From Alphaproteobacteria bacterium (GTDB lineage: Bacteria; Pseudomonadota; Alphaproteobacteria; Rhodospirillales; UBA2165): a stretch of 40,790 bases of DNA. Made by a program: the position numbers and the translations under genes. This document shows positions 9,739 through 37,143 of this stretch, piece after piece. Positions within the stretch are counted from its first letter, which is position 1, and each line of letters begins with the position of its first letter. The stretch spans positions 1-40,790 of the forward strand of contig CAUZTZ010000002.1 of assembly GCA_963582805.1 (NCBI GenBank), read 5' to 3'. The notes beneath the pieces were generated by a model. The model was not told where the DNA came from and made no database searches. It saw nothing but the letters and a program-made list of their open reading frames with translations.

Positions 9739-11505
9739 TCATTCTCCGGCGATGGCGGCGGCATCGAGCGCGCTCTGGCCCGGAAACCCTTCATCGGCGA
9801 ATTGCAGCGCATAGAGCCGGGCATAGGTGCCGCCTTGGGCCAACAGCTCGTCATGGGTGCCCGATTGTTCCAGCCGGCCATTATTGATGACATGGATCAA
9901 GTCCGCATCGATCACCGTCGACAGGCGGTGCGCGATCACCAGCGTCGTCCGGTCCCGGGTCAGACGCCGGAGCGCCGCCTGAATTTGGCGTTCCGATTCC
10001 GTATCCAGGGACGATGTCGCTTCGTCGAGAAGAAGGATCGGCGCGTCTTTCAGCATGGCCCTTGCGATGGCCAGCCTTTGCCGCTGGCCGCCCGACAATT
10101 TGACGCCGCGCTCGCCCACATATGTATCGTAGCCCGCCGGCAATTCCGTGATGAAGTCGTGCGCGGCGGCGCCCTTGGCGGCGGCGATGATGGAATCTTC
10201 TTCGGCGCCCATGCGGCCATAGGCGATATTGGCGCGGATGGTGTCGTCGAACAGCACAATCTCCTGGCTGACCAGGGCCAGGCTCTTGCGCAGGCTGGCG
10301 ATAGTGCAGGCCCTGATATCGGTGCCATCGACGGAAATGGTGCCTTCATCCACATCGTAAAAGCGCGGGATCAGATTGAGGATGGTGGATTTGCCGGCCC
10401 CCGACGGGCCCACCAGCGCCGTCATCTTGCCCGCCGGCGCGGTCAGGCTGACGCCGTCGAGGGCGGGCTGGCCGGTGACATAGGCAAAGCGGACGCCGTC
10501 CAGGCTCACCTGGCCCTTGGCGGCGTTCAGCGGGCTTGCATCAGCGGCATCGTTGATTACCGGGGCGCGGTCGAGCAGTTCGAACAGGCGTTGAGCGCCG
10601 GCCAGCCCTTCCTGCAGCGCCGCGTTCAGATTGGCCAGCCGCTTCATCGGCTCGTAAGCAAGCAAAAGCGCGGTGATGAAGGAAAAGAAAGAGCCCGGGT
10701 CCATGGACTGATCGATGACCCGGAAGCCGCCATAGAGGACCACCAGAGCAACGGCGAAACCGCCCAAGGTCTCCATGATCGGACTGGCCAGGGAGCGGAT
10801 GCGCGCCGCCTTGAAGACCAGGGCGAAGATACGCTCGGCGATGGCCCGGACGCGGCCCTTCTCGTATTCCTCCATGCCATAGGCCTTGACCACGCGGGCG
10901 CCCTGGAAGGTCTGTTCCAAGAGCGTCGTGAACTGGCCCATTTCTTCCTGGGTGTTGATGGTCACTTTGCGGATACGCTTGCCCAGCCGGACGATGGGCA
11001 GAATGGCGACGGGGAAAATAAAGAACGAGATTGCCGCCAGCAGCCAGTCTTGAAAGAACATGACGCCGACCAAAAAGATCAAGGTCAGAAAATCCTTGCC
11101 GACGCCGGTAAGCACGTTGGAGACGGCGGCGCGCATCATGTTGATATCGACGGTGAAGCGCGAGATCAGGTTGCCTGTGGGACTGTCGTGGAAAAAGCCC
11201 AGCTCCATGCCGGTCAGGTGCGCATAAAGCCGGTGCTGGGTATCGGTGACGATGCGCTGGCCAACGAAGCTCATCAGCACCGACTGGCCGTAATTGGCGA
11301 GCCCCTTGATCAGGAAGGTCACCAGGATGGCGCCGCCGATGGGCCACAGAAGCGCCTTGTTCTTTTCCACGAACACCTTGTTGATGATCGGCTCCATCAG
11401 CCAGGCGCTGGCGCCAGTGGCGGCGGCGACCAGCGCCATGCACAGAACGGCAGCCACGATCCAGCCCACATAGGGGCGGATGCTTTCCCGCGCCAGACGG
11501 CCCAT
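9739..11505 (-). CDS. msbA: Lipid A export ABC transporter, fused permease/ATPase
   Basis: ORF 9739..11685. The likely start is the ATG at 11505 (MGRLARESIRPYVGW...), because the upstream extension runs into the neighbouring gene. It has six N-terminal TM segments, Walker A GPSGAGKST, signature LSGGQRQR and Walker B ILLLDEATS. Confidence 0.85.
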   Translation of the reverse strand: MGRLARESIRPYVGWIVAAVLCMALVAAATGASAWLMEPIINKVFVEKNKALLWPIGGAILVTFLIKGLANYGQSVLMSFVGQRIVTDTQHRLYAHLTGMELGFFHDSPTGNLISRFTVDINMMRAAVSNVLTGVGKDFLTLIFLVGVMFFQDWLLAAISFFIFPVAILPIVRLGKRIRKVTINTQEEMGQFTTLLEQTFQGARVVKAYGMEEYEKGRVRAIAERIFALVFKAARIRSLASPIMETLGGFAVALVVLYGGFRVIDQSMDPGSFFSFITALLLAYEPMKRLANLNAALQEGLAGAQRLFELLDRAPVINDAADASPLNAAKGQVSLDGVRFAYVTGQPALDGVSLTAPAGKMTALVGPSGAGKSTILNLIPRFYDVDEGTISVDGTDIRACTIASLRKSLALVSQEIVLFDDTIRANIAYGRMGAEEDSIIAAAKGAAAHDFITELPAGYDTYVGERGVKLSGGQRQRLAIARAMLKDAPILLLDEATSSLDTESERQIQAALRRLTRDRTTLVIAHRLSTVIDADLIHVINNGRLEQSGTHDELLAQGGTYARLYALQFADEGFPGQSALDAAAIAGE

Positions 11506-13605: not shown

Positions 13606-14583
13606 ATGATACACACTTCGATCTGCGATTTGCTTGGTATTGCGCATCCGATTGTTCTCGGCGGCATGGGCGGCGGCTATACACAAAGCAATATGGTGGC
13701 CGCCGTCTCCAACGCCGGCGGGCTCGGCACCCTCGGTTGCCATGGCCGGGACGGCGAGCAGATCACCAAGGACGCCGCCGCCATCCGCAGCGCCACCAAC
13801 CAGCCCTTCGCGCTGAATTTCCTGTTGTTTGCCACCGAAGAAGACGCCTTCGCCGCCGCCATTGAGGCCCGCCCGGCGGTGCTCTCTTATGCCTGGCCGA
13901 AGGGTGATCAGGACATTCAGCCCTATATCCGGCGCGCCCACGATGCCGATGCGCGCGTAACCTATATGGCCGGCAGCGTCGCCGAAGCCCGGCGCGGCGC
14001 CGACGCCGGCGCTGATATCATCGTCGCCCAAGGCTCGGAAGGCGGCGGCCATGTGAGCTGGATGGCGAGCCTGGTGCTTATCCCCTTGATCGTCGATGCG
14101 GTGGCGCCCATTCCGGTACTGGCGGCGGGCGGCATCGCCGACGGGCGCGGGCTGGCGGCGGCCCTGGCCCTCGGCGCCGATGGCGTGCTTTTGGGCACCC
14201 GCTTTCTGGCATCGGACGAGGCGCCGCTGCACGACAATTTCAAACAAGCCATCCTCGCCAGCGACGGCCACGATACGGCCCTCAGCGAAATTCCCGACCT
14301 CGCCGCCGGCACCGTCTGGCCGGGCGCCATGTCCAGAAGCGGGCGCAACCGCTTCATCGAACGCTGGTCCGGGCGGGAATGGGAATTGCGCCAAAATCAG
14401 GCCGAAGTTCTGGCCGGCGTTCTGGCGGCGCGCAAGGCTGGCGACATCGACGAGGCACCGCTGTCTTATGGCCAGGATGCCGGCCTGATCGATGCCATAT
14501 TGCCGGCCGGCGATATCGTCCGCCAGATAGCCCGGGAGGCCGAAAAGATATTATCGGAGCGCCTGGCCGGGCTTGTTCAATAA
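13606..14583 (+). CDS. Nitronate monooxygenase (2-nitropropane dioxygenase-like FMN enzyme)
   Basis: 325-aa ORF with AAGGA 8 nt upstream. It carries the motifs PIVLGGMGG and IVAQGSEGGGH. Confidence 0.85.
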   Translation: MIHTSICDLLGIAHPIVLGGMGGGYTQSNMVAAVSNAGGLGTLGCHGRDGEQITKDAAAIRSATNQPFALNFLLFATEEDAFAAAIEARPAVLSYAWPKGDQDIQPYIRRAHDADARVTYMAGSVAEARRGADAGADIIVAQGSEGGGHVSWMASLVLIPLIVDAVAPIPVLAAGGIADGRGLAAALALGADGVLLGTRFLASDEAPLHDNFKQAILASDGHDTALSEIPDLAAGTVWPGAMSRSGRNRFIERWSGREWELRQNQAEVLAGVLAARKAGDIDEAPLSYGQDAGLIDAILPAGDIVRQIAREAEKILSERLAGLVQ

Positions 14584-14595
14584 AGGCGAATACGA

Positions 14596-15369
14596 TTACG
14601 CCAGCAGCGATTGCGCCGCCGCATAAACCAGACGCACCGCCAGTAATGTCAGGATAATCTGCAGCCCGATGCGAAAAGACCGCTCGGGCAGCCGGTTGAG
14701 CACCTGCCGCCCGGCCCAGGTGCCGGCAAAACCAAGCGCCAGGGCGCCCACCAGAAATGGAATATAGGGCCCGAAGGCAAAGCCGATAATGCCGAACGCG
14801 GTCAGCTTGACGATATGCTGCATCGACATCAGCGCCGCATGGGTAGCGACCACTTTTTGTTTGTCGGCGCCAACCGCATTGGCGAACGGCGCGATCAGCG
14901 GCCCCGAGCCGCCGACAAACATGGTAACGAAGCCGCTGACCAGGCCGAGGATGCCGAATTTCACCGGCCCCGGTTTGGAGACCTTGAAGCGCTGCGCCCA
15001 GGTGGCGTAGAGCACAAAGACCGCCAGCGCCATTTGCAGCACGCCCACCGGCAGCGCTACGAACATGTTGGCGCCGATCGCCGAGCCGGCCACCGTGCCG
15101 ACGGCGAAATGGGGCAGCACGCGCAATATCACATGGCGCGTCATCAATGCCGTCCGGCCAACGTTGGAGCCAAGCTGAACAACGCCGTGCAGCGGGATCA
15201 GCGCCAATGGCGGCAGGAACACCGCCATCGTCGCCAGCACCAGAACGCCGCCGCCAAGGCCGAGCGCGGCGGTCACAAAACTACCCAGGAACGCGACCCC
15301 GGTGAGGGTCAGAAAGCCGATCAAGGAAAGATCGGTTCCTTGGATAAAAAATTCGATTACGGCGTCCAA
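14596..15369 (-). CDS. TauE/SafE (TSUP, DUF81) family anion exporter/permease
   Basis: 257-aa, highly hydrophobic ORF with about 8 TM segments and Gly-rich helices typical of the family. Confidence 0.8.
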   Translation of the reverse strand: MDAVIEFFIQGTDLSLIGFLTLTGVAFLGSFVTAALGLGGGVLVLATMAVFLPPLALIPLHGVVQLGSNVGRTALMTRHVILRVLPHFAVGTVAGSAIGANMFVALPVGVLQMALAVFVLYATWAQRFKVSKPGPVKFGILGLVSGFVTMFVGGSGPLIAPFANAVGADKQKVVATHAALMSMQHIVKLTAFGIIGFAFGPYIPFLVGALALGFAGTWAGRQVLNRLPERSFRIGLQIILTLLAVRLVYAAAQSLLA

Positions 15370-15394
15370 TTTTCACCCCTTGCTTAGGCCAGCC

Positions 15395-15427
15395 CATTCG
15401 CGGCATGATCTTCTATCGCCGCGAATG
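15395..15427. promoter_or_regulatory. 10-bp perfect inverted repeat in the divergent tauE-like / dsbA-like intergenic region (operator or leader hairpin candidate)
   Basis: CATTCGCGGC (15395-15404) and GCCGCGAATG (15418-15427) with a 13-nt spacer. It lies 26 nt from the minus-strand start at 15369 and 29 nt from the plus-strand ATG at 15456. Confidence 0.5.
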
Positions 15428-15455
15428 CGGGCACGCAATGCAACAAGGAGAAACA

Positions 15456-16082
15456 ATGATGGCCGAACAGGTCACTTTGGAAGTTTTCAGCGACTACGTT
15501 TGACCGTGGTGTTATCTCAGTACCGGGCGTATTGAAAAGCTGAAACAGAACTACGATGTCGAGATCAAGCTGGTGCATTTTCCGCTGCACCCGGAAACGC
15601 CCGCCGACGGCGTAACCCTGGAAGAACTTTTTGCCGGGCGCGACGTGGACATGGACGGCATGCACAACCGCATGAAGGGCCTGATGGACCAAGAAGGCCT
15701 GCCCTACAACAGGCGCAGCCACACCTATAACAGCCGCCTGGCGCAGGAGCTGGGCATCTGGGCGGACGGCCAGGACGGCGGCGGCGATATTCACGATGCG
15801 CTGTTCAAGGCCTATTTCGTGGATGGCATAAATATTGGCGACGTGGAGGCTCTGGTGGAAATCGCGGCGGCCAATGGCTTGGATGCCGGGGCCGCCCGGG
15901 AGGTTCTTGAAAACCGCACCTTCAAGGAACAAGTGGACGAAAACTGGAACCGCTCGCGCCAATATGGGGTGACCGGCGTGCCCACCTATGTGGCCGGCGG
16001 CCAGAGCGTCGTCGGCGCCCAGCCCTACGAAGTGCTGATCCAGTTGATCGACGCCGCCGAAGCCAAAGCCCAGGCTGAGTAG
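15456..16082 (+). CDS. DsbA/FrnE-like thiol:disulfide oxidoreductase with in-frame TGA (15501-15503) at the first Cys of the CxxC motif: candidate selenoprotein (U-P-W-C), or alternatively a point-mutated pseudogene
   Basis: ATGATG at 15456 has AGGAG at 15445-15449. This frame is continuous with the called ORF 15573..16082 apart from one TGA. Translation is MMAEQVTLEVFSDYV-TGA-PWCYLSTGRIEKLKQNYDVEIKLVHFPLHPE, matching the conserved FxDxxCPWCY N-terminus of FrnE/DsbA-family proteins. Confidence 0.65.
15517..15535 (+). promoter_or_regulatory. Candidate bacterial SECIS hairpin downstream of the in-frame UGA
   Basis: UCAGUAC (15517-15523) pairs with GUAUUGA (15529-15535) as 7 bp including one G-U. 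The apical loop is CGGGC. The stem starts 14 nt after the UGA. Confidence 0.4.
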
Positions 16083-16223
16083 CCGGTCAGCTTTTATATT
16101 TCGCGTCTTCCTCGGTGATGTGGCGCAACCACCAAGTATTCAGGAACGACACCAGCGCGCCCACCGCTGCCGCGCCGCCGGGCCGGGTGCTAGATTGCGC
16201 AAAATTCAGCTATGGAGGCGGCC

Positions 16224-17201
16224 ATGAGCGACACACAGTTAACCATCGCGCTCGAACGATACGACCGGCATGTGCCCATATTCATGGGCTCCGTGGCGCC
16301 GCCGGCCGGCGTGCAATTGCGCCCCCTGGAGGTCGGCATGCAGACGGCGCACCGGGATGGCCGCGACCGGCACCGGCGATTTTTGCAAGGGCGCGAATTT
16401 GATATCGCCGAAACCTCGCTCTCGTCGCACATTATATCGGTCAGCCGGGGCGAGCCGTTTGTCGGCATCCCGGTGTTCCCGCGCCGCCTGTTCAGCCAGA
16501 ACCATATCCTGGTCACCGCTGCGTCGGGCATCGAAAACCCGAAGGACCTGGAAGGCAAGCGCGTCGTCATCAACGCCTTTCAGGTGACCATGACGGTGCT
16601 GGCCTTGGGCGATCTGAAATTCGAATATGAGGTTGATTTGACCAAAGTGCATTGGATCAGCACTTATGACGAGGTGCTTGAAATTGGCGCCCGCGAGGGT
16701 TTTTCGGTGGCCAAGGTGCCGGACGGCACCGATCCCGGCCAATTGTTGCTGTCCGGGGACGCCGACGCCATCATCTTTCCGCATCCGCCGGCCTCGGTGC
16801 TCGGCACCGATCAAATCCGCCCCCTGTTCGCCGACCGGAAAGCCGAAGCGCTGCGCTATTTCGGCAAATTGGGCTATTACCCGATCATGCATTTGATCGC
16901 TTTTCAGGCGCCGGTGATCGAAGCCAATCCAGGCCTGGCCCAGGGCATCGCCCAAATGTGGGACGCCGCCAAAGCCGAGGCCGATCACTTCTACGAAGAC
17001 CCCGGCTACGCCAATCTGGCCTTCGCGCGCAACGAGTTTGAATACCAGCAGGACCGCATGGGCGCGGGCGCGTGGCCGTCCGGCCTTGCCGCCAACCGCG
17101 CCAATCTGGAACGCTTTATTACTTATATGGCGGATCAGGGATTGATCGCGGCAGCCATGCCGGTGGAGGATCTATTCCATCCATCGACGCTGGACAGCTA
17201 G
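16224..17201 (+). CDS. 4,5-dihydroxyphthalate decarboxylase-like / NMT1-THI5-like periplasmic-binding-fold protein
   Basis: ORF 16212..17201. The ATG at 16224 is preceded by GGAGG (16214-16218, 5-nt spacer). It has family-typical motifs (YDRHVPIFMG, LEVGMQ, EFDIAETSLSSHI, PFVGIPVFPRRLF). The family assignment is from memory of annotated homologues. Confidence 0.6.
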   Translation: MSDTQLTIALERYDRHVPIFMGSVAPPAGVQLRPLEVGMQTAHRDGRDRHRRFLQGREFDIAETSLSSHIISVSRGEPFVGIPVFPRRLFSQNHILVTAASGIENPKDLEGKRVVINAFQVTMTVLALGDLKFEYEVDLTKVHWISTYDEVLEIGAREGFSVAKVPDGTDPGQLLLSGDADAIIFPHPPASVLGTDQIRPLFADRKAEALRYFGKLGYYPIMHLIAFQAPVIEANPGLAQGIAQMWDAAKAEADHFYEDPGYANLAFARNEFEYQQDRMGAGAWPSGLAANRANLERFITYMADQGLIAAAMPVEDLFHPSTLDS

Positions 17202-29625: not shown

Positions 29626-30330
29626 CTAAAATCCGCGCACCTCCTCGACCATTTGCTCCAATCGGTCAAAATCGCACACCAATAGCGCATTTTTCTCCCG
29701 TTTCAGGATGCCCATTTTGGTCAATTCGCTGACCACGCGGGCCACCGTTTCCCGGGTGGTGCTGGCCCGGCTGGCCATTTCACCATGCACCGGTATGGGC
29801 TGGATGGTGGCGATATTGTCTTGGCGCTTGGCGTTCCTGGCCTGGCGCAACAATTCGCCGTGAACCCGGTTGTTGGCGCCCAAGCTCGACAGATCGACAA
29901 TGCGTTCCGTCGAGGCGCGGATAATGGCGGCCATATTGCGCAGCACCCGGAGCGACAATTGCGGATAATTATGGATCAGCTTCAAGAAGCGTTCCGGCGA
30001 CATTTTGGCGATGTAGGAAGCTTCGATGGCAATCACGCTCGACGACCGGGGGCGGCCGTCAAAGGCGGCCAATTCGCCAAAATAGTCGCCTTCACGCAAA
30101 TCGTCGAGGGCGACCTCCTTGCCCTGCACGGTAAAATTGACGATGCGCACGCGCCCCTGGGTGATGAAATAGACATCCCGGCTTTCGTCCAATTGATCGA
30201 GAATCTGCTCGCCCGCCGCAAACCGGCGCCAGCGGCACGACATTTCGAAATCCCGGCGCTCGTCGCCGGTCAAGTCGGCGAGCGCGTGGATGTTCGACAG
30301 ATCATGCTGCTTCGGTATCGCCAAAACCAA
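29626..30330 (-). CDS. Crp/Fnr family transcriptional regulator (cNMP-binding domain plus C-terminal HTH)
   Basis: 234-aa ORF with a cNMP-binding beta-roll (GDYFGELAAFDG.PRSSSV) and an HTH (TRETVARVVSELTKMGIL). No N-terminal Cys cluster is present, so it is not a classical O2-sensing FNR. The start is an apparent TTG and is uncertain. Confidence 0.82.
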   Translation of the reverse strand: MVLAIPKQHDLSNIHALADLTGDERRDFEMSCRWRRFAAGEQILDQLDESRDVYFITQGRVRIVNFTVQGKEVALDDLREGDYFGELAAFDGRPRSSSVIAIEASYIAKMSPERFLKLIHNYPQLSLRVLRNMAAIIRASTERIVDLSSLGANNRVHGELLRQARNAKRQDNIATIQPIPVHGEMASRASTTRETVARVVSELTKMGILKREKNALLVCDFDRLEQMVEEVRGF

Positions 30331-30510
30331 CCCCTTTTAAGCGGACCCAGGCCCCATGTTATCGCCCCATGGTTAAAAAATCGAGCCTTTGATCCAAGCG
30401 GACCCGGCAACCAAATGGTTGTTTTCATGCGCTTTTTCCATAGCCCTACTTGCCCGTCCCCGCCCGGCAAACTATGGTCGCGCCAGCCGAGGCGCAATGG
30501 TGCAACGAAT

Positions 30511-31488
30511 ATGAGCGAACACCAACCGGATATTGAGGCTGGCGTGATTGCTGCCGTGGTGCCGTGCTACCGGGAGCGCGCGTCGATCCTCGGCGTCCTT
30601 AAAAAAATCGGTCCCGAAGTCAGCCATATCATCGTTGTCGATGACGCCTGCCCCGACGGCACCGGCGAGCGGGTCCGATCCGAATGCGCTGATCCCCGCG
30701 TATTGGTGCTAACCCACGAGGCCAATCAGGGCGTCGGCGGCGCCACCTTGTCGGGCTACGCCAAAGCCATCGAGCTGGGCGCCGATATTATCGTCAAGCT
30801 GGACGGCGACGGCCAGATGAACCCGGAAATGATAGCGCGGCTGGTGCGCCCGATCCTGGAGGGGCGCGCCGATTACGCCAAGGGCAACCGGTTTTTCCGG
30901 CTGCAAGGCATTTCCGGCATGCCCAAGATGCGCCTTGTGGGCAATGTGATCCTGTCATTTGCGTCCAAGGTTTCCAGCGGCTATTGGAAGATATTCGATC
31001 CCACCAATGGATTTACCGCGATCCATGTGAAGCTCGCCAAAATCCTGCCGCTGGATCAAATCGACAAGAGCTTTTTCTTCGAATCCGACATGCTGTACCA
31101 CCTCAACGTCAACCGCGCCGTGGTCGCCGATGTCCCCATCGATGCCATCTATGGCAACGAAACCAGCCACCTGAAAATCTCCCGGATATTGCTCCCGTTT
31201 GCCTGGAAGCATATGAATAATCTGCTCAAGCGATTGATAATAAACTATCTTTTTCGGGATTTCAGCTTCGCCTCGGTGCAGTTGCTGGTCGGCATGGTGC
31301 TCATCGCCTTCGGCACCATCTTTGGCGGCATCAATTGGTATGAAAGCGTCAGCACCGGCATCGTCGCGGTTACCGGCGTCATTGTACTGGCCGCGCTGAC
31401 CTTTTCCTTCGGCGCCATCCTGTTGCTTGGATTTTTGAACCACGACATCCAGAACCAGCCGCAACGCCCGCTCTATCCGGACCTCTGA
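30511..31488 (+). CDS. Family 2 glycosyltransferase, GtrB/ArnC-like polyprenyl-phosphate sugar transferase with two C-terminal TM helices
   Basis: The real gene is the 3' part of ORF 29785..31488, starting at the ATG at 30511; the upstream part is antisense to the Crp/Fnr gene. It has the motifs AVVPCYRE, VVDDACPDGT and KLDGDGQ, plus a hydrophobic C-terminus. Confidence 0.82.
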   Translation: MSEHQPDIEAGVIAAVVPCYRERASILGVLKKIGPEVSHIIVVDDACPDGTGERVRSECADPRVLVLTHEANQGVGGATLSGYAKAIELGADIIVKLDGDGQMNPEMIARLVRPILEGRADYAKGNRFFRLQGISGMPKMRLVGNVILSFASKVSSGYWKIFDPTNGFTAIHVKLAKILPLDQIDKSFFFESDMLYHLNVNRAVVADVPIDAIYGNETSHLKISRILLPFAWKHMNNLLKRLIINYLFRDFSFASVQLLVGMVLIAFGTIFGGINWYESVSTGIVAVTGVIVLAALTFSFGAILLLGFLNHDIQNQPQRPLYPDL

Positions 31489-34926: not shown

Positions 34927-37143
34927 ATGGCCGAAGCACCGCCAGAACTGGACACCATGGCCACTGATACGGATGCCGCGCCGGAGCCGCCGGCCGAGGC
35001 TGCGCCGGAGCCATCGGCCGAGGCTGCGCCGGAGCCATCGGACGATGTTGCGCCCGATGCGGGCGAAGATGCCGCACCGGACGTGGACATCGCCGGCGAC
35101 GGGCTGGCCACGCCCATAATATCCACGGATGATTTTACTCCGGAAATCTCATTTCCCGGCGAGCCGGTGGTCATCAACGAACGTTTTGAGGTTTTCCCCG
35201 CCAAGCCTCTACCGGAAATGGATTCCCCCTCGGCCCGCGCCTTCGAGGCCGAAGACCGCCTGCAGACGGAAAACCCGGTATTCGCGCTGGTCTGCATGCC
35301 CGAAATTCCAGCCCGCCAGAACGTCATCAATTCGATCGCCGGCGACGATTTGCAGGGCATCATCAAATTGCACGATGCCGGCACCGTCGAATGGACATCG
35401 CTGAACCGCTGGTGTCAGGTTTTGATCCTCGAGCGGCCGCTCGGCGGACGGGTGACGGACGCCTTGGCTTCGGATATGGAAGAATTTCAGAAGGCCGATA
35501 TTGTCCGCGAGGTTCTGCAACAGGGCATGGAAGCCCTGCAATATCTGCAAATCCGCGGCCATGTTCATCGCGCCCTGCGCCCCGACAATTTGTTTTTCCG
35601 CGACGCCGAAAAAGAAAACATCATTCTCGGCGAATTCATGAGCGCCCCGCCCGGCTTTGATCAGCCGCTGGCGTTCGAGACGCCGGAACGCGCCATGGCA
35701 TCGCCGGGCGGACGCGGGCGCGGCGCCTTTTCGGATGACAATTATGCCCTCGGCGCCACCGTCGCCTTTCTTCTTCAGCCCAGCAATCCGGTGGCCGGAC
35801 TAACCGCCGAACAGATCATCCATTCCAAAATCACCCGGTCTTCCTATCAGACCTTGGTCGGCGCCGATCTCCTTACGGCGACCTTGGTCCAGCCGTTGCG
35901 CGGCTTGCTGGAAGACAATGCCCATCAACGCTGGGACTTTGACAGTTTCGAAATGTGGGTCAGCGGGCGCCGCGTTCCAGCCGCGCAGAGCCCGGCGCGG
36001 CAGCGCTCTCCCAGGGCCCTGAAGTTCGGCCCGTTCGAGCATACCGAGCCCCGAAGCCTCGCCTATGCAATGTCGCTGCGTGCCGACACGTCGATCAAGC
36101 TGGTCCGCGACGGGACCTTGGAAACCTGGCTGGCGCGCGGTATCGAAGACCAGGAACTGGCCGAAATGGTTACCGGCGCGATTGCCGAATCGGGCGTAAA
36201 ACACGCGGAAAACCGCGATGCCGATGCGATCCTGATGGCGCATATTCTGCTGATTATGGACCCGACCAGCCCGGTGCAATATAAGGGCGCCCATTTTATG
36301 GCCGATGGATTTGGCAGCGCCCTCGCCACGGAAACCATCCGCGGCGGCAATGTGAAGGATCTGGCCGAGGCGGTGGTTCATCAATTGCCGACCAAATCTT
36401 TCGAATTGCAGGTAGGCGGGCTGGCCGCGTCGATAACCGAAGACCAGTTGTTTCAGGAATTGCGCCTGCATCTTCAAAGAGCCGAGCCCGGCTACGGCGT
36501 GGAGCGGTGCCTGTATCTCTCCAATCCGAGCCTGCCCTGCCGGAGCCCGCTTCTCGGCGGGCGCTATATCGACCATATCGAGGATATTCTGCCCGCCTTG
36601 AACGAGGCCGAGGCGGACGCCGAAGCCAAGCAGCGCCCCTATGACCGCCATCTGGCAGCCTTCCTGGCCAGCCATTTCAGTGGAGACCTCGACGGCTTTC
36701 TGGATGAAGCGGACGATCCCGACGACGCGGCAGCAGTCCTGGCCATCTTGAAAATGTACGCCCGGGTTCAAGCCGTGTTGCAGCTTCCCGAAATGGTTGG
36801 CCTCGCCAAATGGCTTGGCGGGCTTGTGGGCCCGGTGATCCGCCAATATAAAAGCCGGGCGACGCGGCGATTGTTGGAAGCGGAAGTGCCGAAATTGGTC
36901 CACATCGGCTGGCTCGCCGATCTGCTTGCATTGATGAACAATACCGATGCGCGGCTGCGCGATGCCAGCGACTATGCCGACGCCCAGGATGCCTTTCGCG
37001 AAGCCGACGCCGAGATCGAACGTATTGAAGTGAATTCCGATCCCGATTCGGACGCGGTTCAGCGCGGCTCCAAGCAAACCGCGGCGGTACTATCGATTAT
37101 CATCATGTGTATCCTGGTTACCATGATGATCCTGACCAACTGA
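34927..37143 (+). CDS. Hanks-type protein-kinase-like protein with degenerate catalytic motifs (pseudokinase), acidic repeat N-terminus, large C-terminal domain and a terminal hydrophobic anchor
   Basis: 738-aa ORF whose kinase-fold landmarks are in canonical order. The Gly-loop position reads LPEMDSPSARAF. VAIK reads FALVC. HRDLKPEN reads HRALRPDN (35566-35589). DFG reads GEF. APE reads TPE. SDxYSLG reads SDDNYALG. A terminal RW is present. The last ~20 residues, AAVLSIIIMCILVTMMILTN, are hydrophobic. Confidence 0.7.
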   Translation: MAEAPPELDTMATDTDAAPEPPAEAAPEPSAEAAPEPSDDVAPDAGEDAAPDVDIAGDGLATPIISTDDFTPEISFPGEPVVINERFEVFPAKPLPEMDSPSARAFEAEDRLQTENPVFALVCMPEIPARQNVINSIAGDDLQGIIKLHDAGTVEWTSLNRWCQVLILERPLGGRVTDALASDMEEFQKADIVREVLQQGMEALQYLQIRGHVHRALRPDNLFFRDAEKENIILGEFMSAPPGFDQPLAFETPERAMASPGGRGRGAFSDDNYALGATVAFLLQPSNPVAGLTAEQIIHSKITRSSYQTLVGADLLTATLVQPLRGLLEDNAHQRWDFDSFEMWVSGRRVPAAQSPARQRSPRALKFGPFEHTEPRSLAYAMSLRADTSIKLVRDGTLETWLARGIEDQELAEMVTGAIAESGVKHAENRDADAILMAHILLIMDPTSPVQYKGAHFMADGFGSALATETIRGGNVKDLAEAVVHQLPTKSFELQVGGLAASITEDQLFQELRLHLQRAEPGYGVERCLYLSNPSLPCRSPLLGGRYIDHIEDILPALNEAEADAEAKQRPYDRHLAAFLASHFSGDLDGFLDEADDPDDAAAVLAILKMYARVQAVLQLPEMVGLAKWLGGLVGPVIRQYKSRATRRLLEAEVPKLVHIGWLADLLALMNNTDARLRDASDYADAQDAFREADAEIERIEVNSDPDSDAVQRGSKQTAAVLSIIIMCILVTMMILTN
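34975..35094 (+). repeat. In-frame 24-nt tandem repeat (about 5 units) encoding acidic Ala/Pro/Glu octapeptides
   Basis: AAPEPPAE / AAPEPSAE / AAPEPSDD / VAPDAGED / AAPDVDIA. Units 2 and 3 are nearly identical at the nucleotide level (gctgcgccggagccatcgg). Confidence 0.85.

Follow-up and report, generated by a model that had tools for sequence, protein, structure and literature searches.

The plus-strand region 15456/15459-16082 of the window (the whole 40,790-nucleotide stretch of DNA that was analysed) is very probably one intact gene, coding for a cytoplasmic FrnE/DsbA-like thiol-disulfide oxidoreductase with a predicted selenocysteine (Sec) as the attacking residue of a U-P-W-C motif. Comparison with homologous sequences places its in-frame UGA at the catalytic column, reveals selection at the protein level on both sides of this codon, and identifies a conserved hairpin that is specific to the UGA-containing forms. 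In the mechanism that we propose, the hairpin would act as a bacterial SECIS, binding SelB-GTP carrying Sec-tRNA(Sec) during translation, and the SelB complex would deliver Sec when the ribosome reaches the UGA, in place of termination. In the full-length enzyme a selenenylsulfide/selenol-thiol couple would then replace the disulfide/dithiol couple in thiol-disulfide exchange. The gene implies predicted Sec decoding in this marine Rhodospirillales lineage and is a further, well-supported example of interchange between Sec and Cys, here in a cytoplasmic oxidoreductase of the FrnE type. It opens no new question, as the family, the UxxC motif and the SECIS were all reported in 2005.

The interrupted reading frame

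As originally predicted, the ATGATG at 15456 is in frame with the TGA, and reading of the sequence confirms that this is the single stop before the terminal TAG; between TGA 15501-15503 and TAG 16080-16082 there are no further in-frame stops (Table 1). The codons directly after the TGA are CCG TGG TGT (P-W-C), and the column of the resolving Cys (15510-15512) is always Cys, in the Sec group and the Cys group alike. The original prediction also described a Shine-Dalgarno sequence at 15445-15449 with a 6-nt spacer; the AGGAG is present, and is kept in orthologues L001, L004 and L007, but its actual coordinates are 15446-15450 and its spacer is 5 nt. Translation of the window gene more likely starts at the second ATG, 15459, than at 15456, because the L007 orthologue (77% amino acid identity) has the second ATG alone, and because in at least 120 metagenome relatives, among the matches listed, the UGA most often follows the earliest possible start codon by 14 codons, corresponding to the second ATG.

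Table 1. Coordinates of the predicted selenoprotein gene and its elements within the window
Feature	Position	Strand	Remarks
Shine-Dalgarno-like AGGAG	15446..15450	+	5 nt before ATG 15456, 8 nt before ATG 15459
Tandem start codons ATG ATG	15456..15461	+	Read from sequence
Full coding sequence of predicted DsbA/FrnE-like selenoprotein	15456..16082	+	207/208 aa, with one UGA as Sec; stop TAG 16080-16082
UGA, predicted Sec codon, nucleophilic first position of U-P-W-C motif	15501..15503	+	Homologue codon column; FrnE alignment
Resolving Cys TGT of UxxC motif (C19)	15510..15512	+	Sole Cys codon of the gene
SECIS-like hairpin	15517..15535	+	5' arm 15517-15523 UCAGUAC, loop 15524-15528 CGGGC, 3' arm 15529-15535 GUAUUGA
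GTG, internal Val codon, false start of ORF/gene callers	15573..15575	+	ORF list, 169 aa
Predicted N-terminal tryptic peptide			(M)MAEQVTLEVFSDYV-U-PWCYLSTGR

For protein profile and structure matching of the 208-aa product the UGA was entered as Cys. Residues 7-197 of the readthrough product align with Pfam PF01323 (DSBA), covering positions 1-189 of the 191 in the profile (E = 1.8e-41), and a full-length DSBA domain is seen only when the UGA is read through. Among solved structures its best match is Deinococcus radiodurans FrnE (PDB 5cnw and related entries), at E = 5e-26 over query residues 3-198, and the FrnE segment ...wsdiaCPWCYi... matches ...fsdyvUPWCYl... of the window protein residue for residue. 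The claim that the TGA falls on the first Cys of a CPWC motif is borne out both by this structure and by 57 Cys-form homologues, and the FrnE/DsbA-type N-terminus proposed upstream of the TGA agrees with an alignment to FrnE that begins at query residue 3. The window protein has no signal peptide; its N-terminus, MMAEQVTLEVF, leads directly into strand 1, which begins 6 residues past the initiator Met.

A genome scan taking one genome per species yielded 78 informative loci in named genomes, and the codon in the 15501-15503 column is TGA at 21 of these, TGC at 38 and TGT at 19. The TGA forms occur in Alphaproteobacteria, Burkholderiales, Rokubacteria, Acidobacteriota/Terriglobia and Entotheonella. 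Inspection of orthologous loci for TGA versus TGC or TGT had been suggested as a check, and orthologues L001-L009 (approximately 91, 89 and 77% amino acid identity) keep the TGA together with an intact upstream frame; neither they nor the 21 named genomes with TGA show added disruptions. Metagenomes were scanned with a DNA pattern ending before the hairpin, and the TGA form was recovered in at least 120 contigs; among the matches listed, 92 of the 96 contigs long enough to check (about 96%) have an open frame of at least 170 codons after the UGA. Upstream of the UGA amino acids are conserved while third positions vary, the codon of the invariant Val at -1 having a third-position entropy of 1.32 bit, and the upstream codons are therefore translated. 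The 45 nt preceding the TGA, which had been expected to align to homologous N-termini, are accordingly conserved as protein with synonymous variation.

These data bear directly on whether a nonsense mutation changed TGC or TGT to TGA and inactivated a Cys-type FrnE-like gene, leaving a decaying locus. The TGA is one base from either Cys codon, most of the wider family is of the Cys form, and the window has no sel genes, all of which would suit a pseudogene. However, the TGA is kept in orthologues of 77-91% identity and in the 21 genomes of several phyla, frames are intact on both sides in about 96% of the checkable metagenome copies among the matches listed, and the 14-15 upstream codons show synonymous variation with conserved amino acids. 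Moreover, the TGA forms alone maintain a hairpin through compensatory changes (see below). All of these features are unexpected in a decaying gene, and the range of phyla and environments excludes one clonal contaminant as the source. We consider inactivation very improbable. A sequencing or assembly error at 15501-15503, with TGC or TGT as the true codon, seems to us exceedingly so: four different JGI samples yielded contigs (L090-L093) with 100% identity to the window from 14573 to 17082, an identical truncated gene call is found in thirteen contigs, and relatives assembled by other groups carry the TGA too. Both alternatives had been raised with the original prediction, and both are disfavoured by independent assemblies that share the TGA and by orthologues that are undisrupted.

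The original prediction also held that TGA is a genuine stop elsewhere, citing xseA and pyrB, and TGA does terminate eight of the 25 Pfam-confirmed genes in the window, these two included. As it is a normal terminator here, the codon is not reassigned.

The ORF list begins this gene at GTG 15573 and gives 169 aa, as had been described, and a two-product arrangement that matches the ORF callers and the public annotation would consist of a 15-aa leader ending at the UGA and a 169-aa redox-inactive DsbA-fold protein initiated at that GTG. However, the 23 codons from the UGA to the GTG, PWCYLSTGRIEKLKQNYDVEIKL, are conserved as protein and lie within the DSBA domain. Gene callers place the start of the orthologues variously at a GTG, at an ATG or further upstream, with called lengths of 167-185 aa, and there is therefore no conserved internal start. 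The 169-aa form is also without strand 1, the CxxC motif and helix 1, and since the UPWC motif sits upstream of GTG 15573, the earlier statement that this call lacks the redox centre is correct. Two separate products are thus highly unlikely; the 169-aa product is an annotation artefact without a redox centre, and a single readthrough protein is the reading that we prefer.

The hairpin downstream of the TGA

A 7-bp hairpin beginning about 14 nt past the UGA had been predicted at 15517-15535, and it is present as described, with a 5-nt loop and a first base at the 14th nucleotide after the UGA (13 nt between). Covariation was assessed in an alignment (A2) of 97 distinct sequences with 500 shuffles. 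Pairing is preserved in 94.1% of cells, six of the seven pairs show compensatory changes (68 cells), and none of the 500 shuffles is as good; controls in which the helix is slid along the alignment fall to 26-45% pairing. Fully compensated variants include UCAGCAC/GUGUUGA, UCGGUAC/GUACCGA, UUAGUGC/GCAUUAA and UCGACUC/GAGUCGA. The fourth pair is mostly G.U and often U.U, forming a conserved weak spot. The G at loop position 2 (column 25) is at least 90% conserved in the 97 sequences, and the base that follows it is mostly G or U.

The same region stands out in its synonymous sites. Over codons +5 to +10, which encode the hairpin, the TGA forms have a third-position entropy of 0-0.48 bit and the Cys forms one of 1.25-1.57 bit, and in the flanking codons the two groups are similar. 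Because the synonymous sites at +5 to +10 are frozen in the UGA forms alone, the constraint at the nucleotide level is restricted to those forms.

RNA folding had been proposed as a further check, and here the outcome is divided: the hairpin is supported by covariation, but the window hairpin alone is no more stable than its shuffled versions (z = -0.18). It is thus the comparative data, and not single-sequence folding, that place the hairpin beyond chance. The predicted free energy is -4.9 to -5.9 kcal/mol for the hairpin alone and -11.7 kcal/mol for a 60-nt context that includes a non-conserved lower helix; of 135 relatives, 131 have 60-mers at or below -7.5 kcal/mol.

Two other helices were considered and rejected. 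The lower helix of the window 60-nt fold (15502-15510 with 15550-15560) is paired in 27-97% of relatives, depending on the pair, and is outside the conserved element. A helix given by RNAalifold from 23 sequences, joining columns 3-13 with 19-30 and including the A of the UGA, shows no covariation, 473 of 500 shuffles being its equal in the 97 sequences.

The published bSECIS model (PMC13188914) specifies a loop of 3-9 nt, an upper stem of 4-16 bp, a UGA-to-loop distance of 16-37 nt, a minimum free energy at or below -7.5 kcal/mol, and a G in the second loop position. The window element resembles it in its 5-nt loop, its 7-bp stem, the second-position loop G with G or U next to it, and the 20 nt from UGA to loop (15504-15523). 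It is also like the E. coli fdhF-type SECIS in being a stem-loop within the coding region just past the UGA, but there is no sequence resemblance between the two and no Rfam model matches the window element, either when the whole window was searched at gathering thresholds or when 15440-15620 was searched at E <= 10. Unlike the fdhF element and the bSECIS model, the window core is short and weak (approximately -5 to -6 kcal/mol), has the G.U/U.U weak spot at the fourth pair and not a bulged U, and is unusually invariant in sequence across phyla. The segment 15517-15535 is a conserved SECIS-like element and a predicted SelB site.

In a number of members the usual hairpin is replaced by another, approximately 15-40 nt after the TGA in L099, L113 and L117, and also in L102, L111, L118 and others. 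One replacement is the shifted CUCCA-GUU-UGGAG (peptide LVASSLEK), and the second is the fully compensated UCGACUC-GGUCC-GAGUCGA (peptide IDSVRVE). These two types indicate that there is more than one SECIS design within one protein family.

Sec machinery and the interchange of Sec and Cys

The 40.8-kb window contains neither sel genes nor a tRNA-Sec, as judged by ARAGORN and by Pfam annotation of approximately 40 ORFs. Other frames interrupted solely by TGA, outside the confirmed window genes, proved to be Arg/Pro-rich noise only, and the window therefore offers no second selenoprotein as support. Sec genes do accompany the TGA-form gene at other loci: selA, selB and a tRNA-SeC lie 6 kb from it in L026, selB and a tRNA-SeC lie 3.4 kb from it in L018, and selA-selB adjoin it in L065, with the tRNA-SeC of L018 and L026 typed by ARAGORN. 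In the flanks of the 57 Cys-form loci there are no sel genes. Clusters of selABC are documented in some Rhodospirillales.

In L018 the tRNA-SeC (1057-1152) and the 3' end of the selB ORF (43-1104) have about 48 nt in common, and in L026 (1024-2967) the tRNA-SeC follows selB after 70 nt. These two arrangements recall the selC genes nested within selB that have been reported, as can be the case in Alphaproteobacteria.

A UGA accompanied by a hairpin signals recoding but cannot reveal which residue is inserted, and SelB-compatible Cys-inserting tRNAs occur in some bacteria. The product could on these grounds be a CxxC or WxxC protein, made by SelB/SECIS-dependent insertion of Cys through a tRNA(Sec)-like Cys tRNA or by near-cognate Trp or Cys readthrough. 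However, selA, the gene for Sec synthase, sits with selB in L026 and L065, and the tRNAs of L018 and L026 are typed as tRNA-SeC. The repeated Sec-to-Cys replacements in the gene tree suggest furthermore that UGA and TGY are not equivalent, and the family is accepted as a selenoprotein family. Recoding to a residue other than Sec is accordingly unlikely, and insertion of Sec remains the reading that we favour.

A neighbour-joining tree was restricted to the C-terminal ~190 residues, without the segment that the hairpin encodes. All of the Sec forms fall in one subfamily that mixes phyla, and Cys forms are nested within this subfamily at least three times, with a Fitch minimum of four changes; a large 'PWCYLGDNRVK' clade of Rhodospirillales is entirely Cys. 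The mixed-phylum tree fits the known interchange of Sec and Cys and suggests that the Sec form has spread horizontally.

Two full-length members have Arg at the Sec position, encoded by AGA in L217:64-687 and by CGA in L218:456-1091. Both codons are one base from TGA, and the hairpin sequence is intact in both. These Arg forms may reflect sequencing errors, the contigs being 1 kb long and of low coverage, or else population variants or inactive alleles.

The hairpin is constant, nearly base for base, across Alphaproteobacteria, Acidobacteriota, Rokubacteria, Burkholderiales and Entotheonella. Because the tree mixes phyla, Cys forms are nested at least three times, the hairpin is invariant and the Arg variants keep it, the data allow a broader but doubtful reading, which we put forward tentatively. 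The near-invariant UCAGUAC-CGKGC-GUAUUGA might represent a distinct bSECIS class absent from Rfam, and gene and SECIS might have spread horizontally as a portable module among aerobic soil and marine bacteria, having been turned repeatedly to Cys and giving rise to occasional AGA or CGA Arg alleles.

Known relatives, gene calls and genomic surroundings

The window protein and D. radiodurans FrnE share a cytoplasmic DsbA fold with the CPWC motif in a matching place, and neither has a signal peptide, but FrnE has Cys where the window protein has Sec by prediction. The FrnE chain is also longer (260 aa), with a C-terminal extension past the alignment, which ends at FrnE residue 215, whereas the window protein stops at 208 aa. 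This extension of FrnE carries a second Cys pair, CxxxxC, which is missing from the window protein, where C19 is the only Cys. Periplasmic DsbA of the E. coli type is similar in its thioredoxin fold with a helical insertion, its CxxC-type active site and its membership of PF01323. However, the window protein is without a signal peptide, has UPWC in place of the CPHC of DsbA, and has its closest kin in the cytoplasmic FrnE group.

A 'DsbA-like protein' (COG2761, UxxC, nine sequences, with a SECIS figure) was described as a new selenoprotein family from the Sargasso Sea by Zhang, Fomenko and Gladyshev in 2005 (PMC1088965), so that the replacement of Cys by Sec in thioredoxin-fold CxxC proteins is, as originally stated, an established class. 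The family was later found in four bacterial genomes, and a 2026 review (PMC13188914) has the entry 'DsbA-like protein form 1, PF01323, UxxC'. The window gene is like form 1 in belonging to PF01323, in having UxxC with Sec predicted at the first Cys, in its SECIS-like hairpin right after the UGA with a G in a small apical loop, and in its marine/metagenomic origin with widespread Cys homologues; there are no essential differences. It belongs to DsbA-like form 1 as assigned by COG/Pfam and motif, and not by pairwise alignment with AACY01178397 or NIP15863.1; the loci retrieved for comparison include no Sargasso Sea (AACY) contigs. A full-text literature search found no paper joining 'FrnE-like' and 'selenoprotein', the name used in the literature being 'DsbA-like', and the publications consulted report no experimental Sec insertion for any member of the family.

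Since the apparent stop is very probably a Sec codon, gene callers truncate the gene, and the expectation that standard pipelines would mis-annotate this locus has proved accurate. As called, all of the closest proteins in the databases are stubs of 167-185 aa; the public calls P0001 and P0003-P0008 each have 169 aa and begin V/MHFPLHPE. Truncation recurs because no NCBIfam model reaches its cut-off on the window gene. The error is systematic, in that all of the public calls examined for Sec forms are stubs without the active site, and selenium use is in consequence under-counted in these abundant marine and soil lineages. The covariation-backed hairpin, together with a simple DNA pattern, could seed a model to rescue such genes.

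A Rhodospirillaceae metagenome-assembled genome (L011; SI036_bin45, JABHAA01) is syntenic with the window, at 88-90% identity. The genes of the window are largely of a housekeeping kind and include purD, xseA, lpxK, kdtA, an msbA-like gene, a CDF transporter, NMO, TauE, ruvX and pyrB, as well as a dihydroorotase-like gene, plsY, dprA, topA, rnr, purA, a sigma-70 factor and others. Divergent from the predicted selenoprotein gene, and 86 nt upstream of it, is a gene for a TauE/SafE-family membrane protein (14596-15369, minus strand). The two genes are also neighbours in Rhodospirillales relatives L004, L007 and L090, but the Burkholderiales loci lack this arrangement. Just past the DsbA-like gene the window differs from its close relatives by an indel of about 450 bp: they carry a minus-strand gene for a 140-aa hemerythrin there (L001:2839-3261, L004:3531-3953, L011 approximately 10743-11191), and the window (approximately 16083-16211) does not. 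The 329-aa ORF that follows at 16212-17201 on the plus strand has no Pfam or NCBIfam match; its counterpart in L001 and L002 is a 325-aa call at the matching position.

Elsewhere in the window, a 738-aa plus-strand ORF (34927-37143) has no Pfam match at E <= 1e-5; its weak NCBIfam matches, far under the cut-offs, are to the kinase region of the class IV lanthionine synthetase LanL and to the MAD6 defence kinase. As listed, the ORFs for a Crp/Fnr-type regulator (29626-30330, minus strand) and a GT2 glycosyltransferase (29785-31488, plus strand) share about 550 nt. Since the GT2 domain does not begin until residue 258, the true start of the glycosyltransferase gene is probably well downstream of 29785.
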